Part shown: positions 4,564 through 23,544 of the stretch, piece after piece
Numbering within the stretch: position 1 is the stretch's first letter
Layout of the letters: each line of letters begins with the position of its first letter
DNA from: Candidatus Ozemobacteraceae bacterium
Lineage (GTDB): Bacteria; Muiribacteriota; Ozemobacteria; Ozemobacterales; Ozemobacteraceae
NCBI GenBank assembly: GCA_965140445.1
Contig: OZ223236.1
Span: 3,714,498-3,778,497, forward strand
Direction of reading: 5' to 3'
DNA length: 64,000 nucleotides
The notes under the pieces: model-generated
Databases searched by the model: none
The model's input: only the letters and a program-made list of their open reading frames with translations
What the model was told of the DNA's origin: nothing
Made by a program: the position numbers and the translations under genes

Positions 4564-4622
4564 AACAAGCTTATTTCGAAAAGTTTTTCGAACCTTCTGG
4601 TTTGTAGACAATTCGGATCCAT

Positions 4623-4657: not shown

Positions 4658-4674
4658 TGGATTTTTTTATTTGC

Positions 4675-7111: not shown

Positions 7112-7123
7112 TTTTCAAAATTT

Positions 7124-7152
7124 GAAGACCTGCGAAAGCAGGTCTTCTTTTG
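7124..7152 (+). terminator. Hairpin and T-run after serC (possible attenuating terminator).
   Basis: gaagacctgc-gaaa-gcaggtcttc followed by ttttg. Confidence 0.45.
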
Positions 7153-7180
7153 TAAAAAAGCATTTTTAAAGGAAGGGAAT

Positions 7181-8107
7181 ATGACAAAAATTATTTTAGT
7201 TGCAACAGAAAAACCTTTTGCTCCAGAGGCAATAGATCAAATGAAGAAAGCGGTTGCCGCTACTTCTGGGTATGAATTAAAACTTCTCGAAAAATACACT
7301 GACAAAAGCCAGCTAATTGAAGCTGCTAAAGAAGCTGACGCAATGATTATCCGCAGCGACAAAGCTACCAGAGAAGTAATTGAAGCCGGCAAAAGGCTTA
7401 AAGTAATTGTTAGAGCCGGAGCTGGTTTTGACAATATTGATTTGCAAGCATGCACAGACAATGACGTAGTAGCAATGAACACGCCAGGCCAAAACTCTAA
7501 TGCAGTTGCTGAATTAGCAATTGGCATGATGATTTTTATTGCAAGATGCAAATTTTCCGGTAAATCTGGAACAGAACTTAAAGGCAAAAGAATAGGAATT
7601 CATGCTTACGGAAACGTAGGCCGTGGAGTAGCAACAATTGCCAAAGGCTTTGGAATGGAAGTTGGAGCTTTCGATCCGTTTGTTCCTGCTGAAAAAATGG
7701 AAGAAGAAGGCATCAAAGTTTACACTAAAGTAGAAGACATGTATGCAGATTGTCACTACGTTTCTCTTCATATTCCAGCAAATGATAAAACAAAAAAATC
7801 AATTAATTTTGATCTTTTAAACCTTATGCCAAAAGACGGAACTCTTGTTAATACAGCTAGAAAAGAAGTTATTTGTGAAGAAGGTTTAAAAAAGGTTCTG
7901 GCTGAGCGCCCTGACTTTAAATACGTTTCTGATGTTGCCCCAGATAATAAAGCTGAACTGGAAGCTGAATTTGGTGACAGACTCTTCTTCACCCCAAAGA
8001 AAATGGGTGCCCAATCAGCAGAAGCTAATATTAACGCTGGCGTAGCTGGTGTTGATCAAATAGTAGGCTTCTTTGAAAATGGTGATGTTAGATTTAAAGT
8101 TAACTAA
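7181..8107 (+). CDS. serA: D-3-phosphoglycerate dehydrogenase, short form without ACT domain (D-isomer-specific 2-hydroxyacid dehydrogenase family).
   Basis: 308 aa. NAD-binding motif GIHAYGNVGRGVA. Sits immediately downstream of serC. Confidence 0.75.
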   Translation: MTKIILVATEKPFAPEAIDQMKKAVAATSGYELKLLEKYTDKSQLIEAAKEADAMIIRSDKATREVIEAGKRLKVIVRAGAGFDNIDLQACTDNDVVAMNTPGQNSNAVAELAIGMMIFIARCKFSGKSGTELKGKRIGIHAYGNVGRGVATIAKGFGMEVGAFDPFVPAEKMEEEGIKVYTKVEDMYADCHYVSLHIPANDKTKKSINFDLLNLMPKDGTLVNTARKEVICEEGLKKVLAERPDFKYVSDVAPDNKAELEAEFGDRLFFTPKKMGAQSAEANINAGVAGVDQIVGFFENGDVRFKVN

Positions 8108-8125
8108 GAATTAGTTAAGTTAAAA

Positions 8126-8161
8126 CAAAAAAATGCCACTAATTTAGTGGCATTTTTTTTT
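8126..8161 (+). terminator. Rho-independent terminator after serA.
   Basis: atgccact-aattt-agtggcat followed by T9. Confidence 0.6.
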
Positions 8162-8180
8162 ATGCAGTTTTTTGTTATTT

Positions 8181-11100
8181 ATGCTAAAATCCAATTTCTC
8201 AAAAAAAAAAATGTCAAAAATTGTGAAAAATTTATTTATATTAACTTTATCATTATTACTATTTTTCCCAAGTTTCCTTTGGGGAGCCATTTTACCCTAC
8301 CCCGAAGTTGTGAATAGTCAAAAGTATGATCAGGAAGAACTTTACCGCCTGTACAAGTTTTATAAAATTCGCCCCGCTACCGTAGACCTATGCCAAAGAA
8401 TTGCTGATAAACTTGAAGGAATGGATGCTATTGAGCTGGCAATAGAATGGCATAAGCATACCCTTGAGCTACCCTTAAAACCAGAAATTCGTTCTAAAAT
8501 AAATAAAAAAATAGAAGAGCTTTCAAATTACTCTCCGGAGATGAAGCAAAATTTACCACTTACTGAAAAAGACAAACTGATTGCCAGCGCGACCATTCTA
8601 GAAGATTCTAATTCTCCCGACCAATCGGCTATAAATTACCTTCAAGCTTATGAATTAAGCAAAGAGCCGCAGTTACTTGTTGCTGCAATAGAGCGTTTTT
8701 CGTGGGCCTCTAAACCTTCATCAGCCCTAAAAGCCTATGAGAAGCTACTTAGAACCAAGGGCTATAAGACTACAACAACCGATCTGCAGAAAATGGGCGA
8801 ACTAGCAGAATGGGCAACCAATTATCCAAAAGCTCTTTATTATTACAAGCGCGTTTTTAAACGTTCACCATCTCTAGCAAACGGAGAAAAAGTTGTCCAG
8901 GCCCATCTGGCTTTAAATGAAAATGCTGAAGCAGCATCATTAATGGAAAAGTTAATTCTTAAATACCCTCGTTCAAAAGGCTTAAGGGCACAGTTGGTTG
9001 ATATTTATTCATGGCAAGGCAAAACAGATAAAGCAACCGCACTTTTAGAACAGTTGCCTAGCAGATACTTGACCTTAGAAAGGCTTTTTATGCGAGCCAG
9101 TGAGTATTTAAAAACCTCACAAAATGAAAAATGCCTTAAAGACTGCGACAGTATAATTCTAAAAAAAAGAAGAAAAACGGCTCCAGAGAATGCAATAAAA
9201 GCAGCAATCATTGCAATTAGTTCGATTCAACAAACTAAGACCTCAACAAATGCTTCAAAATATAAGGACGTCATCGTCAGAAACTTTAAATATCTAAGAA
9301 AAACAGGTTCGCTTGAACCTTTTGAGCTGGTGACTGTATTTCGAGTTTTAGCAGAAAACGCCGAGGCCAAAAATGACCTGAACCAGGCTGCTTCTTATAG
9401 AGAGAAGCTGCTTTTTGTTGAAGATTCCGACCAGGAAAGCCTGCTAAAACTGGCTGAAATTTACACAAAACAAAATAACCTGTCTTCTGCCATTAAAGCT
9501 TATGAAAAATTGCTCAAGATAACCCCTGAAGATCCATACTTAAAGAATGATCTTTCTCAACTTTATATAAAAACAGGACAGGCGTGGAAATCGGTACAGA
9601 TTCTTGAAGGCGCTTACCAAGCAGGGGAATCTCCAGAACTTCATAGGCAAGAACTTCTAAACGCTTATAAAGCCAACAATAACAAAAGAAAAATAGCCAG
9701 CTTTTTGCAAGAAAACCAACAAGACTTTCAAGTTGAAAGAAGAGAACTAATCAATGCTTACCTTGAAGCTGGAGAAAACTGGGAAGCAGCCCAATTAATA
9801 TTAAAGGAATTGGAGCAAAACCCATTTGACGATGACCTTGCAAAAACACTAAAGGAACTTTCGCCTTATTATCCCCAACAATATAAAACCTTTAAGAAGC
9901 ATGAACAGCAGTGGATTGAAAAGAGCTATAACAAACAGATTGCATCAATAACCCTGGCCTTAGAAAAGAACCCGGTAAACGTATCGCTTTTAAAGGAAAG
10001 AGCAGCAGTTTACACATATCTGAATAAGCCCGATCGGGCCATGCAGGACTACAAACTGGTCTTTAAGATAAGCAAAGGTGAAGTGGATAGCCTGAAAAAA
10101 GCTATTGAGACTGGCGAGTGGGCAGGAAAATCTCCGGAAGTTAAAGAACTAAGAAAGTCATTGAATAGGATTGAACCTGAAAACGCCTCTAATACTCAAG
10201 CTCTGGCACAACTTTACGCATCCGATCAAGATTTTTCCAAAAGCTATGAATTGTTTAAATCATTAGAAAACAATTCTTCACTCGATCCCGTAATTCTTAA
10301 CACATCAGCATTTCAGTCCTACGAGTGGTCTGGGCGGTCCCATAGCACGAAAAAATTGATTGATGAACTCAGGAATAAGATACAAAACCATAAAGACAAT
10401 TTTGCAAAAAAATCCTATAAAAGTCAGAAAAATCATTTAAGAGCCAATATCGGCCCAGTTTTCAGAACCTCATTTAATTTTTTCCATGATACGAGCGATC
10501 TTTATGACTCAAGATTTAACATCTTTTCAAGATTTAACGTGCAGCAAAATAGCTTAATGGAGTTTGAAATGAGAGACCATTCCTTCACATGGGATGGAAC
10601 AACACAAAGAAGTTTTAAAGGTTCAAGTTTTAGTCTCAGGAAAAAACACACTAATTTGAAAAGAGATCTGACTTATGGCCTGAATCTGTTAAGAGACAGA
10701 ATAGACAACGATACGGCAATTTATCTGCCCGAGGTTTCCTACAGATTTAAAGGGCATAAAAAATGGACAGAATTAGGATTCAGCGAAAATGTAATTTTTG
10801 ACACCCCCGAATCCATGCGGCAAAACATTAAATACCGAAAACTAAGTGTAACTCACCAGAGAGAAATCAATAAATACAATGATCTCAGATTATATTACGA
10901 AGTGGGTAGAAACAGTGAAAAAATAGACAAACATCTATATAGTCTCACCTGGGATCATGTGTTAGGCAACGACCCATTCAGATCAATTCAATACTCTTAC
11001 ACAGTTGAAGATTCAGATCTGGAATTTGATGATAGATTTTATTATGAAGATTATCTTCAAACTCATCAAATTGGATGGTATGGAGAACAGAAAGTTAAAA

Positions 11101-11327
11101 ACACCGGCTGGCGAGAAATGCTTGCCAACTGGTATGTCTATTACGGAATGGATGGAGCAGGCAATGCATTTAGAGGCATATCTGCTGGTCTGGAAGGCTA
11201 TATGAAAAATAATTTATTCTGGCGATTAGCTGGAGATTTAAGAGATTCTTCACAAACAGGAACCCCAGGAGCACGCCCCTATAACTATTGGGACTACACA
11301 GCTTCTATTGAATGGAGGGGATGGTAA
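8181..11327 (+). CDS. pelB: PelB-like exopolysaccharide export protein: signal peptide, long TPR array, C-terminal outer-membrane beta-barrel.
   Basis: Track ORF starts at a TTG (8172). ATGs at 8181 or 8211 give the signal peptide MSKIVKNLFILTLSLLLFFPSFLWGA. Residues ~50-700 are TPR-like (repeated AxxYxxLL / Y-K-x-A patterns). The last ~330 aa are Y/W/N/S/R-rich and end ...WDYTASIEWRGW, a typical OM-barrel C-terminal aromatic. Translationally coupled to pelD/E/F/G. PgaA and BcsC have similar architecture, so the PelB call rests on context. Confidence 0.6.
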   Translation: MLKSNFSKKKMSKIVKNLFILTLSLLLFFPSFLWGAILPYPEVVNSQKYDQEELYRLYKFYKIRPATVDLCQRIADKLEGMDAIELAIEWHKHTLELPLKPEIRSKINKKIEELSNYSPEMKQNLPLTEKDKLIASATILEDSNSPDQSAINYLQAYELSKEPQLLVAAIERFSWASKPSSALKAYEKLLRTKGYKTTTTDLQKMGELAEWATNYPKALYYYKRVFKRSPSLANGEKVVQAHLALNENAEAASLMEKLILKYPRSKGLRAQLVDIYSWQGKTDKATALLEQLPSRYLTLERLFMRASEYLKTSQNEKCLKDCDSIILKKRRKTAPENAIKAAIIAISSIQQTKTSTNASKYKDVIVRNFKYLRKTGSLEPFELVTVFRVLAENAEAKNDLNQAASYREKLLFVEDSDQESLLKLAEIYTKQNNLSSAIKAYEKLLKITPEDPYLKNDLSQLYIKTGQAWKSVQILEGAYQAGESPELHRQELLNAYKANNNKRKIASFLQENQQDFQVERRELINAYLEAGENWEAAQLILKELEQNPFDDDLAKTLKELSPYYPQQYKTFKKHEQQWIEKSYNKQIASITLALEKNPVNVSLLKERAAVYTYLNKPDRAMQDYKLVFKISKGEVDSLKKAIETGEWAGKSPEVKELRKSLNRIEPENASNTQALAQLYASDQDFSKSYELFKSLENNSSLDPVILNTSAFQSYEWSGRSHSTKKLIDELRNKIQNHKDNFAKKSYKSQKNHLRANIGPVFRTSFNFFHDTSDLYDSRFNIFSRFNVQQNSLMEFEMRDHSFTWDGTTQRSFKGSSFSLRKKHTNLKRDLTYGLNLLRDRIDNDTAIYLPEVSYRFKGHKKWTELGFSENVIFDTPESMRQNIKYRKLSVTHQREINKYNDLRLYYEVGRNSEKIDKHLYSLTWDHVLGNDPFRSIQYSYTVEDSDLEFDDRFYYEDYLQTHQIGWYGEQKVKNTGWREMLANWYVYYGMDGAGNAFRGISAGLEGYMKNNLFWRLAGDLRDSSQTGTPGARPYNYWDYTASIEWRGW

Positions 11328-12766
11328 TGTTAAATAGAAATAAGCACCCCCTTTGGCCTTATCTAGAAGCAGTAATCTTTATAGCAATTCTGTCAGCGAT
11401 TGATTTTTATTTTTTCCCTGATAATGCTGGATTCAGAGGAGCTTCATTTAATCCACTTTGGATACCAGTCATATTAATTTCTGGCAGATATGGAACAGCA
11501 CCAGCAATTTTCACGGGACTCTTATGTAGCTTTTATTATTATTACACAACAAATTTAGAAAACTTCTTTTTTGGAGAATTCTCCTTATCATCTTCAGACA
11601 AATTGTTGATGTTTTGTTTCCTTTTTTTTGGTGCCTGGATGGGCCAAATGTATGACAGGATCATATATCGCTATTTCAGCCTTGAATCTGACCATCAAGA
11701 TTTGCAGGAGCAATTTGATAATCTTTATCAGCATTACAAAGCTTCAAAGGAAACCAATAAAGAACTTGAAAAAAAACTTATTAAAAAGCATACAACGGTT
11801 TCAAATCTTTATTCCATGGCCAAAAACCTTGAAAGTCTTAAAGAAGAAGAACTTTATAAAGCAACTTTAGATCTGGTTGAAAGATTTATTCATGCCAGAA
11901 AAGGCGCATTCTATCTCAAGAATAAAGATGGGAAGTTATTCCCGGTAGCATCGTTTGGATATGAAGAAGACCCAACCGATATGCTTACTCAGAAAGCAGA
12001 AAAAAACGCCTTGATTCAGCAAGCAATAAAAAGTGACCTGCCAATATCTTTTCTGGATGGATTTAAAAATCAGCCCGAACTCGAAGAATCTGAAAAATGC
12101 CTCCTTGCCGCTCCAATAAAGTTATTAAGCTCTGCCGAAAATGTGGGTCTAATAACGATCGACGATTCATCTTTCATCAACCTGAATGCTGGAAACATGA
12201 GGATTCTTGGAATTATAGCGGATTGGGTTGCAAATGCTATCCAAAAAAGCAAACTTGTTGCGGATTTAAAGGAAAAAGAAATTAGTGATGCGCTTTCAGG
12301 AACTTATTCTTACAAGTTTTATCTCACAAGATTGAGTGAAGAAGCCAGCAGATTTATGCGCCACGGCACTCCATTTACGATGGTACTTATGGAATTAAAA
12401 GACTTTAAAAAACTCCCTGAAGAAGCTCAAAAGTCTACTTTAAAAACCCTTGGCGAAATCTTTAAAAGATCCATTCGCTATCATGATCTCATTTGCCGTT
12501 ACAAGACTTTAGGTATTTTCGCTTTTCTCTTTCCGTTGTCAGAGGAAGCAGACAGCTCTTTCCATATGAAACGATTAATCAGCAATATTCAAAATTATCA
12601 CCTTAAACCTTTTAAAAATGGAAAAGAGCTAGATATTAAGGTGGTCTTCCAGACAGTTAAGGATCAGCAACCTGTAACGCTTTATCGTTTGCCACCATCA
12701 GAAGCAGCTGAGATACTGATTGATCATATAGACAGATTAATGGAAAATAATGAAAAGACTGCTTAA
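11312..12766 (+). CDS. pelD: PelD-like c-di-GMP receptor: 4 TM helices, GAF-like middle, degenerate GGDEF with intact RxxD I-site.
   Basis: 484 aa. N-terminal hydrophobic segments. C-terminal GGDEF-fold alignment: DALSGTYSYKFYLTRLSEEASRF...MELKDFKKL...RYHDLICRYKTLGIFAFLFP. That is RxxD (RYHD) followed by RY-KTLGIF where active cyclases have RY-GGEEF. Overlaps pelB by 16 nt. Confidence 0.6.
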   Translation: MEGMVMLNRNKHPLWPYLEAVIFIAILSAIDFYFFPDNAGFRGASFNPLWIPVILISGRYGTAPAIFTGLLCSFYYYYTTNLENFFFGEFSLSSSDKLLMFCFLFFGAWMGQMYDRIIYRYFSLESDHQDLQEQFDNLYQHYKASKETNKELEKKLIKKHTTVSNLYSMAKNLESLKEEELYKATLDLVERFIHARKGAFYLKNKDGKLFPVASFGYEEDPTDMLTQKAEKNALIQQAIKSDLPISFLDGFKNQPELEESEKCLLAAPIKLLSSAENVGLITIDDSSFINLNAGNMRILGIIADWVANAIQKSKLVADLKEKEISDALSGTYSYKFYLTRLSEEASRFMRHGTPFTMVLMELKDFKKLPEEAQKSTLKTLGEIFKRSIRYHDLICRYKTLGIFAFLFPLSEEADSSFHMKRLISNIQNYHLKPFKNGKELDIKVVFQTVKDQQPVTLYRLPPSEAAEILIDHIDRLMENNEKTA

Positions 12767-13934
12767 CATAGTTGCTATTATAATAGGCCTCATTGCAAAC
12801 CTGGTAGAGCTTTATTCCGTATGGCTCCTAACATTATCAAAAGAGCCTGTTTCTTTTGTTAATTCTCTAGTTTTACATCTTGTTGCCTCTATTTTAATAT
12901 TCATCGCTGTAGCCTTTAGCTTTAAAAAGGTTCAAAAAGAAACACCAGATGACAATAAACTCGCAGAGCAAGAGACTGAGGAAGAGTTTGAGCACATAGT
13001 TCACCCCGAAATTGAAATACTGGAAAGAGCAGAAAAAGAGTTAGAAACCAAAGAAACTGAACAGGTAAAAAACCCACTATTGTGGCCTTCCTTTTTCCTT
13101 TCCTTCTTTCTTCCTATTTTTGGTGTTTTGGTAACCTCAGTGTTGGCAATTCTTATCTCCCCAAACGAAAAGAAAGAGTCAGAAGTGTTTGACGATTACA
13201 TTGATTATATAAGATTAAATGCATCAGACAGGCCAAGATTTAGCTCAATTAATTTTGAATCTCATGTTGCTGGAAAACTTAATTTAGAGCCAATTGTTGA
13301 TTTACTGAGCTCAAACAAGAAAAGTGTTGTCTGGGGTTCATTGGAAAACCTTTCGCATCGAAGCGATAGCCTGGCGGTTTCATTAATCAAACAAACCATT
13401 CAACGAAGTGATATGGATATTAAATATCTTTCCAGCCTTGGACTTGACAGAATTGAGAGTTCATTTTCCAAAAAGTTGGCATTACAAAGAACAGCCTTAA
13501 AAAAGGACAGTTCAATAGAAAATTATTTAAATCTGTTTAAAATAGTTCTTCAATATATTAACTCAGGGCTCCTTGACAAAGAATTGAGTGAAAATCTTAT
13601 TATTGAAACGCTTGAATCAATAAGCCAGGCAAATGAAACTTATCCTGGAAATCCCACCATAGATTCTTATAAAGCAACTCTATTGCTAAATTTAAATAGA
13701 TTAGAAGAAGCAGGAGAAATCTTTAAAAACCTTATAGATAAAAAAATGCTTGCAGATAATTTTAAAATACAGGCCTGTGAGGTCTTTTTTCAAAAAGCAG
13801 ACCTGGAAATAGTAGAAAAGCTGATAGCTGAACTGACTAACAATGAATTTAATCAGGGCTTCATTGAAAAGGTTCAATTTGAAACAGAGCTTTCTGATTT
13901 AAGAGAATTCTGGCTCAAGGAAGAGAATATTTAA
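12750..13934 (+). CDS. pelE: PelE-like inner-membrane TPR protein.
   Basis: 394 aa. 2-3 N-terminal TM helices (IVAIIIGLIANLV..., LVLHLVASILIFIAVAF, FFLSFFLPIFGVLVTSVLAILI) followed by a helical TPR-like domain. Position between pelD and pelF. No family-specific motif was recognisable, so this is a context call. Confidence 0.4.
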   Translation: MKRLLNIVAIIIGLIANLVELYSVWLLTLSKEPVSFVNSLVLHLVASILIFIAVAFSFKKVQKETPDDNKLAEQETEEEFEHIVHPEIEILERAEKELETKETEQVKNPLLWPSFFLSFFLPIFGVLVTSVLAILISPNEKKESEVFDDYIDYIRLNASDRPRFSSINFESHVAGKLNLEPIVDLLSSNKKSVVWGSLENLSHRSDSLAVSLIKQTIQRSDMDIKYLSSLGLDRIESSFSKKLALQRTALKKDSSIENYLNLFKIVLQYINSGLLDKELSENLIIETLESISQANETYPGNPTIDSYKATLLLNLNRLEEAGEIFKNLIDKKMLADNFKIQACEVFFQKADLEIVEKLIAELTNNEFNQGFIEKVQFETELSDLREFWLKEENI

Positions 13935-13935
13935 A

Positions 13936-15453
13936 GTGACTAATAAAGAATTTCCACAGGTAGACATTGAACTGGTATTGGAAGGAAGCTATCCGTATGT
14001 AACCGGAGGGGTTTCAGCCTGGACTCATAGATTAATAAAAGGAATGCCTGAAAAAACCTTTGGCATTGTACATTTAGCCTCGCGGCCGGCAGACACGGTT
14101 AAAATGAAGTTTGACCTGCCCGAAAATGTCTTGTATCTGCACCATATTTATATTCACGATCCCTCTTTTATGGCTGGAAAAAGCTGTAAAGAAATAGAGG
14201 GGAATAAATTTTATAACAGCATGTATAATATGCATATTGAAGCGAGACACGGGAGCGTTCTGAAGTTTAAAGATCTGGTAACCAAACTGACTTCAGATAA
14301 ATGCATTTCATCTTTAAAGGAAATGTTTTACAGTGAAAAGGCATTTGCTCTGTTAATAGCCCTTTACAAAAAAGGCTTTGAAAATAGCTCATTCATTGAT
14401 TTTTTCTGGACCTGGCGTTACATGCACGTTCCGCTATTTCAGATTTTTCAAACAAAAAAAACAAGACCTAAAATAATTCATGCGGCTTCAACTGGCTATG
14501 CTGGTTTTTATGCTGCCATGAGAAAAATGGTTGATAATATTCCGTTTCTGCTTACCGAACATGGCATATACACTCGAGAGCGAGCCATAGAAATAGTGCG
14601 TTCAGAAACCATTTTTACGGAAAACACAGAGGATAGCCAGATAAATTTTGATCAAGGCACCTTTAAGCGTCTATGGTTAAGCTTTTTTGAGGTCATTGGA
14701 AAATGGACTTACCAAACAGCAGATCAAATCATTACTCTCTTTGAAGGCAATAAAAACGCTCAAATTGACTTGGGTGCCCCCGCAGAAAGAATTGAGATTA
14801 TTCCAAACGGGATTTCGCTCGATCAGTTTATGGGAATAAGAAAGAAAGGCCTGCCAAATAAAGAAAGTCTACAGATTGGTTTTGTTGGCAGAGTCGTTTC
14901 AATCAAGGATTTAAAAACACTTTTAAGATCCATGAAAATTGTAACTTTAAAATACCCAAAAGCCATACTTCATATTATTGGGCCACTTGAAGAAGAAAAA
15001 GAATATGCCAAAGCAATGATAAGACTTTCGCACGACCTTGGAATCTCAGATAACGTAAAATTTCATGGCACACAAAATGTAAAAGTGTTCTACCAGGATC
15101 TTGACTTGCTTGTATTCACCTCAATATCTGAAGGACAGCCTTTAACAATGCTGGAAGCGATGGCTGCAGGTCTTCCAATTGTTGGAACAGACGTGGGTGG
15201 ATGTAGGGAGCTGGTAGAAGGAAGAACAGAAGCCGACCAGGAGCTGGGCGCCTGTGGGATTATTACCAACCTTTCTGCTCCGGGAGAAACTGCAAGGGCA
15301 ATAATAGATATTTTAACCAGCAAAGATTTATTTCAAGCAATGGTAGTCTCTGGTAGAGAGCGTGTTAAAGCTTATTACTCCCAGGAAAATGTATTGCAAT
15401 CTTACAAGGCAATCTATGAAAAAAATCTGACTATGGTTTCAGGGAAAAACTGA
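13936..15453 (+). CDS. pelF: PelF-type GT4 glycosyltransferase.
   Basis: 505 aa. N-terminal EGSYPYVTGGVSAWTHRLI (PelF/DUF3492-like). C-terminal GT4 motif region EGQPLTMLEAMAAGLPIVGTDVGG. Confidence 0.8.
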   Translation: MTNKEFPQVDIELVLEGSYPYVTGGVSAWTHRLIKGMPEKTFGIVHLASRPADTVKMKFDLPENVLYLHHIYIHDPSFMAGKSCKEIEGNKFYNSMYNMHIEARHGSVLKFKDLVTKLTSDKCISSLKEMFYSEKAFALLIALYKKGFENSSFIDFFWTWRYMHVPLFQIFQTKKTRPKIIHAASTGYAGFYAAMRKMVDNIPFLLTEHGIYTRERAIEIVRSETIFTENTEDSQINFDQGTFKRLWLSFFEVIGKWTYQTADQIITLFEGNKNAQIDLGAPAERIEIIPNGISLDQFMGIRKKGLPNKESLQIGFVGRVVSIKDLKTLLRSMKIVTLKYPKAILHIIGPLEEEKEYAKAMIRLSHDLGISDNVKFHGTQNVKVFYQDLDLLVFTSISEGQPLTMLEAMAAGLPIVGTDVGGCRELVEGRTEADQELGACGIITNLSAPGETARAIIDILTSKDLFQAMVVSGRERVKAYYSQENVLQSYKAIYEKNLTMVSGKN

Positions 15454-15454
15454 T

Positions 15455-16894
15455 ATGGCAGGAATTGGATTTAGACTTCAAAGACTTGTTGACCACGGGT
15501 CCTATACTTTTAGTTTGCGTGGATTTCTTTTCGCAACTTTTCTTGTTGCCGGCCCCTGGATTACCACGATTGCAGTAATCAGTATTTTTTCAAACTTCAC
15601 TCACCTTGGCGGACTTGATTACGACATTTTTAGAACCTCAATTATTTATTTTTATGCCTTTTCTCTTATTTTAACAGGCCTCTATCAAATGCCTCTCACT
15701 CGCTACCTAGCAGATGAGTTGTTTGCTGAACGCCTTGAATCTCTAGTTTCATCCTATCTTGGAATGATAGTCTTCGTTTCTATTACTCAAGGGGTTTTTG
15801 CAGCAATTTACGCCAGTTTTATTCCCCTATCGCTTTTATACAAAACCCTTTTTGTAACAGGTTCTGTTACAGTGGCTCTTCTGTGGCTGGCTGGCATTTT
15901 TTTAAGCTGCTTACGCGATTTTGAATATATTGGCTGGATCTATATTTTTGGTGGGTTAATAAGTCTTGCTGCTGGAATCCATCTTGAGCCCTATTTTGGC
16001 ATGGAAGGCACCTTAGCCGGCTTTATCACTGGCCAGCTTCTTACCTGGTTGGGTATTTCCTGGAGAATTTGCGTTGAATTGGGCGAAGGAAAAATGCAGA
16101 CCAGCTTTGAGTGCCTAAATTCGCTCAAAAACTACAAACTTCATCTTATAACTGGCCTTTCATACAACCTCGCAATATGGCTGGACAAATTCATCTTTTG
16201 GTTCTCAGATATTGGCTCAGAAGCAGTAAAAGGCTTACACTATTTTCAAAACTATGACGTGCCAATTTTTCTTGCCTATGTTTTCGTTATTCCCGGATTA
16301 GGAATTTTCCTAACTAGAGTAGAAACTGATTTTTATAGAACTTACAGGGCTTTTTATGGGGCTATTCTTGAGAAAAAACCTCTCAAAATGATCATTGCCA
16401 AATATAAGGATATTAAATCTACGATTGATCTAACTACCTGGGAACTAATAAGAATCCAGGGAGCAATAGCAGCCATAATATATATTTTTGCCCCAGAACT
16501 GCTTCGCCTAATCCACTATTCAACAGATTTTACAAGCGTCCTGCGCTGGGGAATTCTGGCGGCCTTTTTTCAGGTTCTTTTCCTGGTCTATTCTCTACTT
16601 TTGCTTTACTTTGAATTCCGTTGTGAAGCTACAGCATGCAATCTAATGTTTTTATTCATAAACGTTATTTTTACTTATCTTACTGTCGCATACAGAATGG
16701 AATGGGCCTACGGAGCCGGCTACTTTTTGTCAACTTGTATTGCCGCGCTGTCTGCGAGATTTATCCTCTATCACCGATTAAAAAAGCTTATTTTTTACAC
16801 TTTTATGACCCAGAAAATGCCTGGAGAAATAAATTCTTCTTTGCTTGAACTGGACATGCAAGTGCGTGGAAACACCCTTTTTAAGGAAGAATAA
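15455..16894 (+). CDS. pelG: PelG polysaccharide exporter-like polytopic membrane protein.
   Basis: 479 aa with ~12 hydrophobic segments. N-terminus MAGIGFRLQRL, the characteristic PelG-family start. 1-nt gap to pelF. Confidence 0.75.
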   Translation: MAGIGFRLQRLVDHGSYTFSLRGFLFATFLVAGPWITTIAVISIFSNFTHLGGLDYDIFRTSIIYFYAFSLILTGLYQMPLTRYLADELFAERLESLVSSYLGMIVFVSITQGVFAAIYASFIPLSLLYKTLFVTGSVTVALLWLAGIFLSCLRDFEYIGWIYIFGGLISLAAGIHLEPYFGMEGTLAGFITGQLLTWLGISWRICVELGEGKMQTSFECLNSLKNYKLHLITGLSYNLAIWLDKFIFWFSDIGSEAVKGLHYFQNYDVPIFLAYVFVIPGLGIFLTRVETDFYRTYRAFYGAILEKKPLKMIIAKYKDIKSTIDLTTWELIRIQGAIAAIIYIFAPELLRLIHYSTDFTSVLRWGILAAFFQVLFLVYSLLLLYFEFRCEATACNLMFLFINVIFTYLTVAYRMEWAYGAGYFLSTCIAALSARFILYHRLKKLIFYTFMTQKMPGEINSSLLELDMQVRGNTLFKEE

Positions 16895-16895
16895 G

Positions 16896-18746
16896 ATGAA
16901 ATTTTTTTTAAAAAAAGTTCTGTTTCTTTATTTTATTCTGGTTATTTCGACAGCTTTTTGTGAAGCCAGGACACAGCAATTTCTCATGATTGAAGACAGT
17001 GAATCAGAAGCTTCCAAAACCATATCATATAACTTAAAAAAAACCATGGCCGACGCGAGCCTGGCAACGCGAGCAATAGACAAAAAAGAGCTCCTGGATT
17101 TTTCCTTTGAAATGGTATCTGAGTTTTCCGGAATTGTATTTACCAGCGACAGCAGTTCCGACTATCTATATGGTCCAGATGCAATAAGGTTTGTGGAAGA
17201 AGGCGGAACAATGGTTTTTGCCCACCATTCATATCCAGAAGACTACATTGAAAAATTTGGGATTAAACCTGTCACAACTATAGCCAACCTATGGAATTCT
17301 GCTAAAGGAATAAAATCGGTTAAACCTGTATTCAGAGAAACCAGGTTTGAGTTAGCTACAGGAAGCTTTACAACTGGCTGCATGAACATTTCCTTTTCTA
17401 AAGAATGGGAGCAACTCTTGAGTTTTGCTGAACCGGATATTCCTTTGCTTGCAACAAGAAAATTTGGCAATGGCAGTGTCGTATACTGGAACTCATCATG
17501 TTTAAGCTCTAAACTTTATCGTGGGATTTTTCTGTTTTCATTATTAAAATCACTACCAGTCTCGGCGATGAGTGTTCACAATGCTTTTTTAATGCACCTT
17601 GATGACTCTCCTCCACCTGCTTATGGAATAATGGAAGGGCCAGTTGCCCGAGATCTGGGGATGAAGGATTACGACTTTCATAAAAGAGTATGGGTTAAGC
17701 AGGTTTTTCCTATTCTTGATTCGTATAAGCTAGCGCTGACACATTTCTTAACCTTCACCTATGATGGCAAAATTCAAGGTCCGTTTCAAAAAAAGTCGGA
17801 CAGAGAACCTTTTTTTTCAGATTATTTGAAATTACTTCGTGAAAGAGGAGACGACTTTGGATTTCATGGTTACAATCATCAATCTTTAACTATGGGAAAA
17901 AGTCCATCCACACCCTGGACAAGTAGAAAAGAAATGGCTGATTCGGTCAGAACTGGTTATCAGCTTTGGAATGAAATGGGCTTGCCGCCGACACTTGCCT
18001 ATGTCCCACCAAACAATGTGATTGATGAAACAGGGAAACTGGTTATTTCTGAGGAATTTCCATCCATCAGGGTTATTTGCAGGGTTTACAACGATGGTGA
18101 TGAATATTATTCAAGAAATTCATCTGGCTTTTTAGCAGGAATTGGAAAAGTTAACAACGAAGCCATGAAAAAGATTCTAAGTCTTTATGCGAGCAGGCGT
18201 GCTATGACATCACCAAAAGCCAGAGAATTCTTTAGAGGTGATGAATATGGGGTTGACCCAGAAAACCCCAAATTTCTTAACCTGCCCCGTCTTTCAAGCG
18301 GACACTTCTTAACTGAATTTGAACAGGCTTTCATTCTTAATGGAATAATGGCACATGGGATCGCTGTCCATTTCTTTCATCCTGATGACATTTATGATCC
18401 TTCCAGACGTGAAAAAAGCTGGGAATACACCTTAGCCGCATTAAAGCGTTTACTCATATTTTTTAATAAAAACTTCGATTTTGCCAGGAAAATTCATACT
18501 TCCAGTTTTTTAACGGACTTTAAAAAATATGTCTTTGGAAATGCAGAAATTCAAATTGAGAATAGCAATTTGTTAAAAATTAAAACTGATGGTCGAAGAT
18601 TCTTTTACCTTTTTTGTGGGAACAATAAATCTGTAGAACCACTTATTGAAGGTGGAAAAATTCTTTCAAAAGTAGATGAGAACGTTTATTTAATTGAATT
18701 GTCTGGCAAAGAAGCCAGCGTAGAGTTCCAGCGAAAAATGAATTAA
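16896..18746 (+). CDS. Secreted PelA-like polysaccharide deacetylase (CE4-like) protein, paralog 1.
   Basis: Start moved to the ATG at 16896 (MKFFLKKVLFLYFILVISTAFCEA signal peptide; RBS AAGGAAG); the track start at 16845 overlaps pelG. CE4-like motifs: LMHLDDSPP (DD metal/acid motif) and FHGYNHQSL (HxxxH). ~60% identical to 19629-21473. Confidence 0.55.
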   Translation: MKFFLKKVLFLYFILVISTAFCEARTQQFLMIEDSESEASKTISYNLKKTMADASLATRAIDKKELLDFSFEMVSEFSGIVFTSDSSSDYLYGPDAIRFVEEGGTMVFAHHSYPEDYIEKFGIKPVTTIANLWNSAKGIKSVKPVFRETRFELATGSFTTGCMNISFSKEWEQLLSFAEPDIPLLATRKFGNGSVVYWNSSCLSSKLYRGIFLFSLLKSLPVSAMSVHNAFLMHLDDSPPPAYGIMEGPVARDLGMKDYDFHKRVWVKQVFPILDSYKLALTHFLTFTYDGKIQGPFQKKSDREPFFSDYLKLLRERGDDFGFHGYNHQSLTMGKSPSTPWTSRKEMADSVRTGYQLWNEMGLPPTLAYVPPNNVIDETGKLVISEEFPSIRVICRVYNDGDEYYSRNSSGFLAGIGKVNNEAMKKILSLYASRRAMTSPKAREFFRGDEYGVDPENPKFLNLPRLSSGHFLTEFEQAFILNGIMAHGIAVHFFHPDDIYDPSRREKSWEYTLAALKRLLIFFNKNFDFARKIHTSSFLTDFKKYVFGNAEIQIENSNLLKIKTDGRRFFYLFCGNNKSVEPLIEGGKILSKVDENVYLIELSGKEASVEFQRKMN

Positions 18747-18765
18747 TTTAAAAACTTACAGAATT

Positions 18766-19587
18766 CTAAAAATCAGGAAAAACCTTATCCAGGTCACGTG
18801 TTGAAAAACATGGCAAGAAACCAAGCTTTGCAGCTTTTTCAGAGATTTCTTTCATCTGAAGCCTCTTTCTCGTATATTCAAGTATTCCTACGAACTTGCC
18901 TGCTTTTTTGATTTTAGAAAGCTCTTTTATCTTCTCTTTTTGCCAGGTTTTATCAACTTTTTCTTCCGCCCATGAAGCAAAAAGACCTTCTTGAACAATG
19001 CCATTATAATTGTCCATTATTCTTTTATCCTCGTACAACCCGTGGCTATTCTGAAATAAAAGTATGACTTTGGGATTTGATTTTCGCCACTTTTCTGCAA
19101 GGCGTTCAAGGAAAACAACCATTCTTTCTTTGTATTCTTCAGTATCTTCATAGATTTCCCAGGCATCAGTAATGTCTAAGTAAAAACCGTCAAACCCTTT
19201 TGCCAGTATTTCATCTGAATAGGATTGAATTATATCAAACCACTTTTCTTCCCAGTATTTTACCGGGAAGTTGCCAGTCCATACAGGGTTTTCATTGATT
19301 ATTAAATCTTTAACTTCTGGTTTTTTAAAATAGCTACGGTATTCTTCTGCTTCACCTATAGATAAATAGGCCAAAACATATTTTTTTGTTTTTTTTAAAA
19401 ACTTAATCTCAAAGGGTTTGTATGCATCTGGATCAACTACCACTAAATCTGACGAGGTCTTCAAAACAGAAAATAATCTTTGCTTGTGATAGACGCAAAA
19501 CCAGTTCTTTGGTTTAATATTATCAAGGGCTCCAAAGCATGGAAAGACACAAAGCATTAATGCCAAAAATATTATTCTCTGAATCAT
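18766..19587 (-). CDS. GH114-family glycoside hydrolase (PelA hydrolase-domain-like, TM1410-type TIM barrel), secreted.
   Basis: 273 aa with signal peptide MIQRIIFLALMLCVFPCFG. YLSIGEAEEY and GFDGFYLDITDAWE motifs, typical of GH114 endo-alpha-1,4-hexosaminidases. Confidence 0.6.
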   Translation of the reverse strand: MIQRIIFLALMLCVFPCFGALDNIKPKNWFCVYHKQRLFSVLKTSSDLVVVDPDAYKPFEIKFLKKTKKYVLAYLSIGEAEEYRSYFKKPEVKDLIINENPVWTGNFPVKYWEEKWFDIIQSYSDEILAKGFDGFYLDITDAWEIYEDTEEYKERMVVFLERLAEKWRKSNPKVILLFQNSHGLYEDKRIMDNYNGIVQEGLFASWAEEKVDKTWQKEKIKELSKIKKAGKFVGILEYTRKRLQMKEISEKAAKLGFLPCFSTRDLDKVFPDF

Positions 19588-19628
19588 ATGCTACAATCAA
19601 CCCCAATTAAATTTTAAAAGCAAAAAAA

Positions 19629-21473
19629 ATGAAAAACATAATCAAACTAATAACAACGTTCTTTTTTATAACTATAATAATACCCGCTTTTGCAGAATTC
19701 AAAAAGCAACAATTTTTGCTGATTGAGGATCAGGAATCTAAAACCTCTCAACAAATTTCATATAACATTGAAAAAGCCATGTCGGGCGCAAGCTTATCAA
19801 CAAGAAGGCTTGAGAAAAAACAATTGCTGGACTTTTCTTTTAACGATATTTCCTCTTTTACCGGAATTATTTTCACCAGCGACTCCTGCCCTGACTATCT
19901 TTATGGACCAGATGCTAAAAATTTCGTTTTAGATGGTGGAATTCTTTGCTTTGCCCACCAGTATTATTCGCAAGAGTATATAAGTGATTTTGGCGTATCT
20001 CTAGAATCTGGAGAATCAGATGCAATCTATGAAGATGCTCGGGGAGTAAAAAGCCTTAAGCCCATTTTTAACGATGAATATTTTGAAATGGCAAAAGAGG
20101 GGTTTACGACTGGGAGGATCAAGCTCTCTTTTTCAGCTGAATGGGAAACTGTTCTTAATTATATCAACCCGGAAAATTCGCTGCTTTTAACACGAAGATT
20201 TGGAAAAGGAAGCATAATTTATTGGAACTCCTCTTGTTTGACATCCAAACTTTTTAGAGGAATATTCCTTTTCACCCTTTTGAAGTCTCTTCCTATTTCA
20301 GCCATGAGCGTTCACAATGCTTTTTTAATGCACATCGACGATTCACCACCTCCAGCCTATGGAATAATGGAAGGACCTGTAGCTAGAGATTTTGGAATGA
20401 AGGACTATGACTTCCACAAAAGAGTCTGGGCTAAGGAAGTCCTACCTATGCTTGATGCAGCTGGCATAAAGCTCACCCATTTTTTAACTTTTGCTTATGA
20501 TGGAAAAATTAAAGGGCCTTTTCTAAAACAAAGCGATAGAGAGCCATTTTTCTCCGAATTTCTTAACATATTAAGAAAAAGGGGCGATGACTTTGGGTTC
20601 CATGGATACAACCATCAATCTCTTACAATTGGCCATAGTCCATCAACCCCGTGGAAAAGCCTTGATGAAATGTTGGATGCAGTAAAAGCGGGCTACAAAA
20701 TCTGGCAGAAACTGGGACTACCCCCCACCCTCTGCTATGTTCCACCAAATAATGTAATAGATAAGCATGGCAAATTAGTCTTATCAGAAGGTTTTCCAAG
20801 CATAAGAGTTATTTGCCGAGTTTACAAAGACTATGATAATGATCATTTCGCAAAAAAATCCACTGGTTATATTGCAGGACTTGGAAAAGTTGACAGCAAA
20901 GTAATGAAGAAAATTTATAGTCTTTATGCAAGCCGAAAAGCCATGACTTCACCCAAAGCGAGAGAATATTTTAATGGCGATGAATTTGGATTAGACCCAG
21001 AAGTTCCAAAATTTCTTGACCTGCCAAGATTGTCCAGTGGACACTTTTTGACTGAATATGAAAAACTTCAGATTTTAAATGGAATAATGGCTCACGGAAT
21101 TGCGGTTCATTTTTTTCATCCTGATGACATATATGACCCCGCCAGACGTGAAAAGAACTGGGAATATACTCTTTCATCATTAAAAAGGCTTTTACTTTTC
21201 TTTTCAAAGAATTTTGGTTTCGCACGAAAGTTACATACTTCAAAATTTGTTCAGGATTTTAAAAAATACGTTTTTGGAAACTCGAAAATCTTTTCAAATG
21301 GCGAAACAAAGTTAAAAATTCAACAAAAAGGCAGAAGATTTTACTACTTGTTCAGGCGTGACGCTTCAAATATTGCACCTAAAATCACTGGAGGAAAAAT
21401 AATAGCCGAAGTTGAAAAAGGTAAAATTTTCCTCATCGAGCTTAAAAGCCAGGAAGCAAACATAGAAAACTAA
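19629..21473 (+). CDS. Secreted PelA-like polysaccharide deacetylase (CE4-like) protein, paralog 2.
   Basis: 614 aa with signal peptide MKNIIKLITTFFFITIIIPAFA. Conserved LMHIDDSPP and FHGYNHQSL. Collinear with paralog 1 along its whole length. Confidence 0.55.
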   Translation: MKNIIKLITTFFFITIIIPAFAEFKKQQFLLIEDQESKTSQQISYNIEKAMSGASLSTRRLEKKQLLDFSFNDISSFTGIIFTSDSCPDYLYGPDAKNFVLDGGILCFAHQYYSQEYISDFGVSLESGESDAIYEDARGVKSLKPIFNDEYFEMAKEGFTTGRIKLSFSAEWETVLNYINPENSLLLTRRFGKGSIIYWNSSCLTSKLFRGIFLFTLLKSLPISAMSVHNAFLMHIDDSPPPAYGIMEGPVARDFGMKDYDFHKRVWAKEVLPMLDAAGIKLTHFLTFAYDGKIKGPFLKQSDREPFFSEFLNILRKRGDDFGFHGYNHQSLTIGHSPSTPWKSLDEMLDAVKAGYKIWQKLGLPPTLCYVPPNNVIDKHGKLVLSEGFPSIRVICRVYKDYDNDHFAKKSTGYIAGLGKVDSKVMKKIYSLYASRKAMTSPKAREYFNGDEFGLDPEVPKFLDLPRLSSGHFLTEYEKLQILNGIMAHGIAVHFFHPDDIYDPARREKNWEYTLSSLKRLLLFFSKNFGFARKLHTSKFVQDFKKYVFGNSKIFSNGETKLKIQQKGRRFYYLFRRDASNIAPKITGGKIIAEVEKGKIFLIELKSQEANIEN

Positions 21474-23544
21474 GCGCTTTTAAAGCATTTTGCTCATCAA
21501 GATGACGAGCAATACATTCGCCAAGGTCGCTTATAGAAAAAGGTTTTTTTAGTATTTCGGAATCGGTTCTATCCAGGAAATCATCTGGAAGTTCTTTCCG
21601 GCTATAGCCAGTACAAAATACTATTGGAACACCTTTTCGAATTTCACAGATTTTTTCAAAAGCATCTCTGCCATTTAATTCTGGCATTACAACATCAAAA
21701 ACCAGTAGATCTACATTATCTGGATTACTTTCAAATGCTTCTAAGGCTTCTTGTCCATCGGACACAGCAATAACATTGAATCCCAGCTTTTTCAGCATTC
21801 TTTTGGAAAGCTCCCGCACCATCTCTTCATCTTCCGCAAGGATAGCTGTTTTACCAGGAAACTTATTCTGGTAAATCTTTTTATCAGTTCCCACTAGTTC
21901 ATAAACTGGTGTTATTTCTCCAGACACCGGCAGAAAAACTCTAAAAGTTGAACCCTGTCCAACCTTGCTCTCAACATTGATTTTACCCTTATGTCTTTTA
22001 ACAATTCCATGAACTGATGCAAGGCCCATTCCAGTGCCCTCGCCAGATTTTTTGGTTGTAAAAAATGGTGTAAAAATTTTCTTCTGAATTTCTGGTGGAA
22101 TGCCCTCTCCATGATCAGCAACTTCAATTACTACATATTTACCCTTTTCACTTTTCTGAACGGCACCATGCCGGCTTAAATCGCCTCTAATTACAGATAT
22201 CTCAATCGAACCTGACTTGTTTTTCTTCATTGCATCACGCGCGTTTACGCATAAATTAGTCAGAATCTGGTCAAACTGACTTGGGTCCACAACGAAATAA
22301 ATTTCATCCTGATAGGGCTTAAAGTTTATTTTATAAGTTTCCCCTATAATTCTTTTTATCATACCTACAATCTGAGTAACTTGCTTGTTTACTTCAATCC
22401 TTTGGGGCTTAAAAGTCTCCCTCCTGCTAAAAAACATCATTTGCTTAACAAGGCTCTGTCCTCTTAAACCTGCCTCAACAATACCTTCTAATAGTGATAA
22501 GTCCTCAGAGTTTTCTGAAATTTCGGGAGCCATTAATTCCGCATATCCAAGTATAGCCTGCAAAATATTATTGAAATCATGAGCCACACCGCCAGCTAAA
22601 CTCCCCATAACTTCCATTTTCTGAACCTGTCTTTGCTTTTGCTCTCGGTTTTGAAGTTCGGTAATATCAATAACTGAAACAAGAATTAGTTCATAATCAC
22701 CATTTTCATCAATCTGAGGCGATGCTGCAATGGAGAAAACATGATCAGTATTTGTTTTTATACTGTTGCTAAAAGCAAATTTTTTTAAAACCTGGGCTTT
22801 CTTTATCGGGCATTCCTTACAGATACCGGAAGATTTACAAATTACCTCATTACATTGTCGAAATTGCATATCAGAGAATTCCAGACCAAATACTTCCTGG
22901 CTGGAAGCATTTGCCCAAACAATTCGCAGATCAGAATCAAAATAAAATAAACAGTCCTGAACCCTCTGCAAAACTGCTCGGTTACTAATTAATGAATCTG
23001 CCATAAGCTTCTTAAAAGCTGTTGATTCAGTTGAATCATAAAAACTGATTGCTATTGATTCTGAATCTAGTTGAAATTTTTTTACAGAATAAGTGCGCCC
23101 CGATTTGCCGAGAAAAATATTGAAACATTCATTTTCAGACTTTTCTTTTATATTTTCTTTCAAAATTTTAGAATCCTTGCCAAAAATATCAATCAAAGAG
23201 ATTGATCTATTTGGAAAATCTGCATAGGAAAATTCTTTTTGAAAAGCTTTATTTGCAGCAATCAAAGAAAAGTCTTCATCGTCATTTACCAGTAATGATG
23301 GTTCGTTTAAAGAATCAAAAAAATGCAGTATCTTCTCATCTCTCTTTGCAACTTCTGATTGGCTAATTCTAAATTTTTTACGGAAAAAGTTTGCAATGAA
23401 AACAGCTAAAACAAGCATAAAGAAAGCAAAAACTATTGAGAGGCTTATCCCTGATTTTATGCCGTTATTAGCATAAAGATCGGCATAAAGAACCAAAGAA
23501 CATCCAAGAATAAAAACGGATAATTTCCAACATTTCTTACTCAT
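21442..23544 (-). CDS. Hybrid sensor histidine kinase (TM, PAS, HisKA, HATPase, receiver).
   Basis: 700 aa. N-terminal TM. H-box GVAHDFNNILQAILGYAELM. G-box region GEGTGMGLASVHGIVKRH. C-terminal receiver ILAEDEEMVRE...DLLVFDVVMPELNGRD. Its 3' end overlaps the pelA-like paralog 2 convergently by ~30 nt. Confidence 0.8.
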   Translation of the reverse strand: MSKKCWKLSVFILGCSLVLYADLYANNGIKSGISLSIVFAFFMLVLAVFIANFFRKKFRISQSEVAKRDEKILHFFDSLNEPSLLVNDDEDFSLIAANKAFQKEFSYADFPNRSISLIDIFGKDSKILKENIKEKSENECFNIFLGKSGRTYSVKKFQLDSESIAISFYDSTESTAFKKLMADSLISNRAVLQRVQDCLFYFDSDLRIVWANASSQEVFGLEFSDMQFRQCNEVICKSSGICKECPIKKAQVLKKFAFSNSIKTNTDHVFSIAASPQIDENGDYELILVSVIDITELQNREQKQRQVQKMEVMGSLAGGVAHDFNNILQAILGYAELMAPEISENSEDLSLLEGIVEAGLRGQSLVKQMMFFSRRETFKPQRIEVNKQVTQIVGMIKRIIGETYKINFKPYQDEIYFVVDPSQFDQILTNLCVNARDAMKKNKSGSIEISVIRGDLSRHGAVQKSEKGKYVVIEVADHGEGIPPEIQKKIFTPFFTTKKSGEGTGMGLASVHGIVKRHKGKINVESKVGQGSTFRVFLPVSGEITPVYELVGTDKKIYQNKFPGKTAILAEDEEMVRELSKRMLKKLGFNVIAVSDGQEALEAFESNPDNVDLLVFDVVMPELNGRDAFEKICEIRKGVPIVFCTGYSRKELPDDFLDRTDSEILKKPFSISDLGECIARHLDEQNALKALSFLCLLPGF

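Follow-up and report, generated by a model that had tools for sequence, protein, structure and literature searches.

Gene content and operon structure of the locus

We analyzed a 64-kb stretch of bacterial DNA (contig OZ223236.1; here called the window) and focused on a gene cluster at positions 8172 to 21473 that resembled the pel loci for exopolysaccharide synthesis and export. The original prediction interpreted this cluster as a Pel system that joins a Gram-negative porin to a split PelA, and our results largely supported that interpretation. All eight open reading frames (ORFs) of the region were found exactly at the coordinates at which they had been placed. Six of them formed a series on the forward strand (pelB', pelD, pelE, pelF, pelG, and pelA_DA1, here DA1), a hydrolase gene followed on the reverse strand, and pelA_DA2 (DA2) closed the cluster on the forward strand.

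The series began with pelB' (8211 to 11327). The ORF was listed from a TTG codon at 8172 (1051 amino acids [aa]), but the probable start was the ATG at 8211, which yields a 1038-aa protein with the signal-like N-terminus MSKIVKNLFILTLSLLLFF... The pelB' stop codon and the pelD start codon overlapped in the sequence TAATG, which placed the real pelD start at 11327, preceded by GGAGG; pelD (11327 to 12766) thus encoded 479 aa instead of the 484 aa of the ORF listed from 11312. The pelE gene (12750 to 13934; 394 aa) overlapped pelD by 17 nt, and 1-nt gaps separated pelE from pelF (13936 to 15453), pelF from pelG (15455 to 16894), and pelG from DA1 (16896 to 18746). In the case of DA1, the ORF was listed from a TTG at 16845 (633 aa), and the true start was the ATG at 16896, yielding a 616-aa protein with an N-terminal signal-like segment. 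Inspection of the junctions indicated that the translational coupling originally proposed for five genes was present and that it extended over six, from pelB' through DA1. The hydrolase gene (18766 to 19587, reverse strand; 273 aa) and DA2 (19629 to 21473, forward strand; 614 aa) were divergent and separated by 41 nt.

The locus had been described as directly following serC-serA, with about 50 nt available for a promoter. The serA stop codon was located at 8107, and the interval to the ATG at 8211 was about 100 nt. This interval contained a strong terminator-like hairpin (8127 to 8159, no strand assigned), which was identified from a scan and from the sequence; its 15-bp stem was symmetric and flanked by an A-run and a T-run. 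Because this hairpin and T-run lie between serA and pelB', the locus is probably insulated from serA, and simple read-through is improbable. Just 3' of the hairpin and upstream of pelB', we noted a possible extended -10 element (TGcTAAAAT, 8182 to 8190), which was found by eye and was not a scored match. A poly-A run of 11 nt (8201 to 8211) ended in the probable pelB' start codon, and a near-identical contig from the European Nucleotide Archive (ENA) showed an apparent length difference around 8182 to 8211. Scans for sigma-70 promoters and terminators within the locus gave results at chance level.

Comparative synteny, which had been proposed as a check, showed that the layout was kept in relatives. 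Specifically, pelB'-pelD-pelE-pelF-pelG with a DUF2194 gene and a glycoside hydrolase gene recurred in the loci L002/L003 (uncultured metagenome-assembled genomes [MAGs]), L008 (Logan SRR35927064), L010 (GCA_015233155.1), and L013 (GCA_964472075.1), and in L009 as far as its contig reaches. In L008, L009, L010, and L013, pelD was directly preceded by a member of the pelB' barrel family. In L002 and L008, serC-serA was also found upstream of the locus. We considered horizontal acquisition of the locus and rejected it, given this conserved linkage and a GC content (0.35 to 0.39) that was not distinct from that of the flanks.

The inner-membrane core and the PelF synthase

The pelF product, a cytoplasmic GT4 glycosyltransferase with an N-terminal DUF3492 domain, scored 461 bits with the NCBIfam equivalog model NF038011 (cutoff, 100 bits) and 263 bits with PF11997 (DUF3492), and it also matched GT4. 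The pelG product, a polytopic inner-membrane component of Pel export, matched PF16933 over its full length (374 bits, model positions 1 to 452). At the sequence level, the identities of PelF and PelG were unambiguous, as originally predicted. PelG was 33% identical to the Noviherbaspirillum PelG, and PelF was about 35% identical to a proteobacterial PelF. The BLAST scores of PelF and PelG were 306 and 207 bits, respectively, with a proteobacterial locus versus 256 and 55 bits with a Treponema locus of the Gram-positive type. Since both proteins were nearer to the proteobacterial locus, the window locus looks mosaic, and not simply "Gram-positive plus a porin."

The 484-aa PelD ORF product contained an N-terminal hydrophobic (membrane) region, a GAF domain (Pfam GAF_3), and a degenerate GGDEF domain. 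To compare the more divergent core proteins, profiles were built from the PelD- and PelE-like proteins of five loci (that of the window and four related ones) and aligned via hhalign with the canonical proteobacterial PelD and PelE proteins (loci L005 to L007). PelD aligned at a probability of 98.0% (E = 1.6e-13, 381 columns) and PelE at 97.5% (E = 5e-12, 254 columns), whereas the cross-controls were negative (0.1 to 0.2%); both assignments of the original prediction were thereby borne out. A BLASTP comparison with the Noviherbaspirillum PelD gave E = 2e-5. The pelE gene was positioned between pelD and pelF, and its product showed three hydrophobic segments by hydropathy, followed by a helical C-terminal part. 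Pfam models matched neither this protein nor canonical PelE.

An RxxD I-site was found in PelD at residues 384 to 387 (RYHD), and the RxxD motif was kept in all five PelD proteins of the clade. In contrast to this kept motif, the GGDEF position was degenerate in all five (KTLGI in the window; RDKDM, KDEGV, DNPSS, and KDPSR in the others). The combination of a kept RxxD and a degenerate GGDEF is the defining signature of PelD.

The predicted outer-membrane exporter PelB'

Pfam identified tetratricopeptide repeats (TPRs) in the 1051-aa protein. A full-length model of PelB' (predicted local distance difference test [pLDDT], 84.8) showed an N-terminal hydrophobic helix, a TPR-like solenoid of about 40 helices (residues 38 to 747), and then a barrel (residues 750 to 1036, DNA about 10458 to 11324); the protein ended in ...EWRGW. 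When the C-terminal region of about 300 aa was modeled with AlphaFold2 and an alignment of its family, a barrel of 16 beta-strands was obtained (pLDDT, 90.6; predicted TM-score, 0.82). The top Foldseek match to this barrel was PelB of the PelBC complex (9h80_M; E = 2e-11, TM-score of 0.76). The modeled fold and architecture suggest that PelB' belongs to the synthase-dependent exporter class. Thus, the PelB-like TPR/barrel fold that had been proposed was recovered, but membership in the PelB sequence family was not, as detailed below.

An exhaustive HMMER search with residues 740 to 1051 found only 13 representatives of the barrel family among 1.84 billion representative proteins. The members were 874 to 1110 aa long, with the barrel domain at the C-terminus, and all of them had a terminal aromatic residue and a DTPEA motif. 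Word-indexed homologue searches recovered only a frameshifted copy of the protein itself and generic TPR proteins when full-length PelB' was the query, and nothing when the barrel alone was used. The 1051-aa protein scored 43 bits with the PgaA model TIGR03939, compared to a cutoff of 367. At the same position in L002, there was a 1051-aa protein with 24% identity to PelB', whereas the PelG proteins of the two loci were 65% identical; this difference fits the fast divergence of outer-membrane components reported for pel loci (PMC7112194).

The predicted deacetylases and the antisense hydrolase

The functions of PelA were split, as originally predicted, between a standalone hydrolase and deacetylases of the PelA_DA type known from Gram-positive bacteria. 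DA1 and DA2 matched DUF2194 (PF09960, 235 bits each), DUF2334, and Polysacc_deac_1. The DUF2194 proteins also matched PDB 9zau (E = 2.9e-43), a 593-aa entry deposited as "predicted membrane protein, putative," which we infer to be the Bacillus cereus PelA_DA crystal structure described in PMC13254593. In that paper, the B. cereus PelA_DA enzyme founds the families CBM114 and CE26, and its catalytic residues are demonstrated: DD provides the catalytic base and Zn binding, an Arg coordinates the base, and an Asp activates the acid His (PMC13254593). DA1 carried DD, HGYNH, PPNN, PRLSSG, and HPDD motifs, and the motifs of DA2 were likewise intact. All of the published catalytic elements (DD, HxxxH, Pro, the base-coordinating Arg, and the His/Asp pair of the acid) were present in DA1, in DA2, and throughout the clade. 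Based on these motifs and matches, DA1 and DA2 are predicted to be deacetylases of the B. cereus PelA_DA type (CBM114 plus CE26). The paralogy of the two secreted proteins had thus been correctly anticipated, but their assignment to a CE4-like family had not.

DA1 and DA2 were 64 to 65% identical to each other and at most 51% identical to any orthologue, and they were sisters in a neighbour-joining tree. All five related loci that cover this region had a single DUF2194 copy, which in L003, L008, L010, and L013 adjoined the hydrolase gene. The two window genes are thus in-paralogues: because the relatives are single copy at this position, DA2 is the positional orthologue of their gene, and DA1 is an additional copy particular to this genome, which arose by lineage-specific duplication and lies between pelG and the hydrolase gene. 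A recent duplication introduced by the assembly was considered and rejected because the protein identity was only 64 to 65% and because the gene calls of an independent ENA contig likewise included the first copy. The N-termini of both proteins contained one hydrophobic segment, whose end resembled an AFA|E or AFC|E site, and AxA-like sites were seen in the clade relatives. Judged by eye, the N-termini of the clade deacetylases may be cleavable signal peptides rather than the membrane anchor of Gram-positive homologues.

The antisense gene between the two deacetylase genes encoded a putatively secreted, endo-alpha-1,4-galactosaminidase-like protein (a PelA_H analogue, GH191/GH114-like). It matched PF03537 (Glyco_hydro_114) at 84 bits (cutoff, 27 bits), and its TIGR01370 score (145 bits) was below the cutoff of 181. 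The best PDB matches were 9ep5 and TM1410 (E = 1e-23 to 1e-24), and the match to PelA (9cgy) was weaker (E = 2e-6). In alignments with TM1410 and PelA, the putative catalytic residues D138 and E200 fell on the YLD and E positions. CAZy family GH191 is defined by TM1410 together with an environmental homologue (Env-GH191); Env-GH191 degrades Pel, and the Thermotoga maritima GH191 enzyme had no activity on galactosaminogalactan (GAG) (PMC12054363). We take 9ep5 to be the environmental GH191 homologue, a point on which the name of the entry is silent. The original description of an antisense, standalone GH114 hydrolase was correct in its first two parts; as to family, the protein appears closest to GH191, the TM1410 family.

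The search for PelC

Canonical PelC is an outer-membrane lipoprotein that forms a dodecameric ring. It has been called "a hallmark" and "unique to Pel biosynthesis," and it is described as essential for Pel in Gram-negative bacteria such as Pseudomonas aeruginosa (PMC12141448, PMC7112168). The original prediction held that the locus lacks a PelC-like gene, and our searches agreed: among all six-frame ORFs of at least 40 aa in the window, the best E values were 1.7 (phmmer with a single PelC) and 0.69 (3-sequence hidden Markov model [HMM]), compared to 1e-59 and 1e-61 for the positive controls. The query came from the Noviherbaspirillum locus and was verified against PDB 5T11, 5T10, 5T0Z, and 9H80_C. 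In L001 to L003 and L008 to L010 (each with 10 kb on either side), the best values were 0.09 with phmmer and 0.27 with the HMM, which corresponded to noise. In L013, the gene calls for the stretch from pelB' to pelD included nothing of PelC size, and a separate scan of ten window ORFs of 131 to 229 aa gave no relevant Pfam match.

Relatives, probable host, and neighboring genes

By PelG, the nearest species representatives were 65 to 72% identical, and the closest named one was a "Candidatus Rifleibacteriota" MAG. Six DUF2194 homologues (38 to 47% identity), one of which was encoded on the L010 contig, also came from organisms named Candidatus Riflebacteria or Rifleibacteriota at NCBI. Based on these relatives (all named members of the clade are Riflebacteria), the host probably belongs to the candidate phylum Riflebacteria/Rifleibacteriota, a group regarded as OmpM-bearing diderms within the Terrabacteria (bioRxiv 10.1101/2021.05.31.446380).

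The same locus was present on an ENA metagenome contig (L001; ERZ21869602 ctg75386l, 2756 to 15914) with many split genes: pelB' was divided into 736- and 321-aa ORFs, and pelE, the hydrolase gene, and DA2 were in pieces. The splits most likely reflect frameshifts introduced by long-read assembly and not pseudogenes. The contig L011 (JGI 3300009784, Treponema sp. at NCBI, 6897 to 14771) had the order pelD-pelE-DUF2194-pelF-pelG of Gram-positive loci, its pelD was fused to an epimerase/short-chain dehydrogenase/reductase domain, and the TPR/barrel gene was absent from it. This spirochaete, a diderm, seems to have no dedicated Pel outer-membrane exporter. In Fusobacterium nucleatum, a locus (CS401_RS04325 to CS401_RS04355) contained DUF2194, pelF, pelG, and polygalactosaminidase genes. 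Since other diderms (the Treponema contig and F. nucleatum) also have DUF2194 next to pelF and pelG, the novelty of the arrangement in the window is limited. On the contig L012 (ENA ERZ27257034 k141_701226, 10001 to 18245), a DUF2194 gene (821-aa product) and a gene for a GH114-like hydrolase were located beside a gene for a 1324-aa TPR/HEAT protein, and neither pelF nor pelG was found within 10 kb.

Immediately downstream of the locus, a gene for a hybrid histidine kinase/response regulator (21442 to 23544, reverse strand; PAS-HisKA-HATPase-REC by Pfam) was convergent to DA2 and overlapped its 3' end by 32 nt. A hybrid kinase gene was also a neighbor in L001 and L008. This conserved neighbor is a possible regulator of the locus; we treat it as genomic context, not as a demonstrated part of the system. 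Elsewhere in the window, two overlapping ORFs of 719 and 791 aa (26520 to 31048, forward strand) had a faint Reg_prop repeat as their sole match, and a 1173-aa protein (47015 to 50536, reverse strand) combined an RNase_H_2-superfamily domain with a superfamily 1 helicase (AAA_11/AAA_12). Two reverse-strand genes (51005 to 51673 and 52220 to 52804) encoded pseudopilin-like proteins with N-terminal methylation motifs, and the adjacent 807-aa ORF (52808 to 55231, reverse strand) had no Pfam match.

DISCUSSION

The gene content, homologies, barrel fold, catalytic and I-site motifs, six-gene coupling, and clade-wide layout that we observed lead us to consider it likely that the genes of the locus together specify a complete machine of the synthase-dependent type, with which a diderm would make a Pel-type biofilm polymer of alpha-1,4-linked N-acetylgalactosamine (GalNAc) and galactosamine (GalN). 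The identity of the polymer, the control by cyclic di-GMP (c-di-GMP), the periplasmic location of the enzymes, and the independence of PelC enter this scheme by analogy. PelF would polymerize the chain in the cytoplasm, and PelD, PelE, and PelG would form an inner-membrane complex that is switched on when c-di-GMP binds to the RxxD I-site of PelD, a step suggested by the motif. In the periplasm, one or both of the secreted PelA_DA-type CE26 enzymes would partially de-N-acetylate the polymer, and the separately transcribed GH191-like galactosaminidase would trim it. The polymer would then pass along the TPR solenoid and leave the cell through the 16-strand PelB' barrel without a PelC ring, as happens with PgaA and BcsC.

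Several observations weigh against this scheme. PelB' had no match to PF24604 (B-barrel_PelB_C) at E <= 0.01, a model with which the Noviherbaspirillum PelB scored 198 bits; a profile of the barrel family had no match among PDB sequences; and the hhalign comparison of the barrel with three proteobacterial PelB barrels gave 0.4%. Because these sequence-level tests failed, the link between PelB' and PelB is structural and positional only, and PelB' represents a distinct family. Structurally, the barrel resembled PgaA and BcsC about as closely as it did PelB. The lumen of the P. aeruginosa PelB barrel is described as clearly anionic, and the lumen charge of the window barrel was near neutral (-4, with -2 to +5 for the other 12 members), although this figure is a crude one from strand alternation without coordinates and is too rough to argue for or against a cationic cargo. 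PelD did not match the Pfam model PelD_GGDEF (PF16963), and since this model matches canonical PelD, the window PelD must be divergent. In addition, polymer chemistry is not readable from sequence, the assignment of the organism draws only on the names of relatives at 40 to 72% identity, and pelC could be present elsewhere in the genome, given that the window covers only 64 kb of about 5.2 Mb.

The last of these points leads to the possibility that the system is canonical in style, with pelC unlinked elsewhere in the 5.2-Mb chromosome and PelB' still in need of a PelC ring. The reported requirement for PelC in P. aeruginosa and the rearrangement of pel genes in some lineages fit this possibility. 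However, no PelC was found within 10 kb of six related loci (L001 to L003 and L008 to L010), while all of the other components stayed clustered, and PelB' does not resemble in sequence the proteins of the PelB family, which dock PelC through their TPRs and periplasmic rim. Moreover, the structurally equivalent PgaA and BcsC function without a lipoprotein (PMC12141448). We therefore regard an unlinked pelC as rather unlikely and lean toward PelC-independent Pel export. The barrel protein itself might instead come from another export system, as a PgaA- or BcsC-like chance neighbor of pelD-pelE-pelF-pelG; the original prediction had named this outcome, with a cognate synthase located elsewhere, as one of two that would overturn it. 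The similarity of the barrel to PgaA and BcsC is compatible with such an origin, but a Pfam scan of the 45 window ORFs of at least 120 aa found no BcsA/B- or PgaC/D-like (GT2) synthase, and the TAATG overlap ties the gene to pelD. The position upstream of pelD is also conserved, both for the barrel family in L008, L009, L010, and L013 and for the 24%-identical protein in L002. Because of the missing synthase, the overlap, and the conserved synteny, we set this explanation aside as highly improbable.

A different concern is the product itself, which might be a relative of Pel with another chemistry, made by a re-purposed PelFG-type synthase and processed by enzymes that act on another amino-sugar polymer. 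PelF is only about 35% identical to a proteobacterial PelF, divergent pel operons may yield polymers of other composition (PMC7112194), and the inactivity of the T. maritima GH191 enzyme on GAG points in the same direction. On the other hand, PelF scores far above the cutoff of the PelF equivalog model (461 bits), the catalytic residues of the modification enzymes are conserved, and alpha-1,4-GalNAc/GalN chains are the sole characterized substrates of the families of both modification enzymes, as seen for CE26 (PMC13254593) and for Env-GH191, which acts on Pel. A chemically different product thus seems quite unlikely to us, and a Pel-type polymer remains the product that we favor.

If the system does function as proposed, the "Gram-positive" CE26 deacetylase and separate hydrolase may be able to operate in a periplasmic context, and the way in which the pattern of deacetylation is set could be studied with the two paralogues, both of which are intact. 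The clustering of all other components, the lack of a PelC nearby, and an exporter of a distinct family with the PelB/PgaA/BcsC fold make the locus a natural experiment on the scope of the PelC requirement: the ring may be necessary for any Pel export, or it may matter only where PelB and PelA are arranged as in proteobacteria. Early surveys reportedly located pel loci via PelC searches, and PelC-less diderm systems would have been missed by them. More tentatively, the locus might represent a third architectural class of Pel systems, in which a lineage-specific PelB' exports the polymer without PelC and CE26 and GH191 enzymes serve as periplasmic modifiers. The locus may also be an evolutionary intermediate between the two known architectures. 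Since Riflebacteria are placed among the diderm Terrabacteria, it could be near a diderm ancestor that gave rise to the Gram-positive pelDEA_DAFG locus by exporter loss, or it could be a Pel core that was independently re-equipped with a porin. With either origin, Pel export would have no inherent need for PelC.

Comparison with known systems

Two classes of Pel loci have been published, namely, the Gram-negative pelABCDEFG class and the Gram-positive pelDEA_DAFG class, in which the deacetylase is of the DUF2194 type and PelA_H is encoded divergently (PMC12141448, PMC7112168). Gene order alone is not new, since pelA and pelB are known to be rearranged in some lineages (PMC7112194). We found no description of an outer-membrane TPR-porin combined with the lack of PelC and with Gram-positive-type enzymes after pelG, and Riflebacteria were mentioned in none of the papers listed by a literature search that joined this group with Pel. 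As for the exporters of poly-N-acetylglucosamine and cellulose, PgaA and BcsC differ from PelB' in that their cognate PgaC/D and BcsA/B partners are not in the window, where the exporter gene is coupled to pelD instead. The antisense hydrolase shares its best sequence matches and an aligned Asp/Glu pair with the GH191 proteins TM1410 and Env-GH191, but it falls below the TIGR01370 cutoff.

With the P. aeruginosa pelABCDEFG locus, the window locus shares the PelD-PelE-PelF-PelG core in the same order, a PelD with a degenerate GGDEF and an RxxD I-site, and a TPR solenoid fused to a 16-strand outer-membrane barrel. However, P. aeruginosa has a bifunctional PelA (GH166 plus CE21), whereas the hydrolase and deacetylase are encoded here by separate genes on opposite strands, and no PelC was found in the window. 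In addition, pelB' is the first gene of the operon and directly precedes pelD, the deacetylase genes are located 3' of pelG and in two copies, and the barrel and PelD fail the Pfam models for PelB and PelD_GGDEF, respectively.

The second point of reference is pelDEA_DAFG plus pelA_H in B. cereus ATCC 10987, which shares with the window locus a monofunctional DUF2194-type deacetylase (CBM114 plus CE26) with identical catalytic motifs (PMC7112168, PMC13254593). A separate glycoside hydrolase gene on the opposite strand is likewise common to both, and PelD, PelE, PelF, and PelG are all present. The B. cereus locus differs from the window locus in that the latter has an outer-membrane TPR/barrel exporter and the order B'-D-E-F-G-A_DA versus D-E-A_DA-F-G; no galE-like epimerase gene was found among the window ORFs of at least 120 aa. 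The deacetylase gene follows pelG and is duplicated here, whereas it is located between pelE and pelF in B. cereus, and the deacetylase N-terminus may be a cleavable signal here, rather than the membrane anchor present there. Although the organism is uncultured and the locus is known here from sequence and models, these comparisons indicate that it is a clade-conserved variant of the well-known Pel pathway, and apparently a diderm Pel system that works without PelC.

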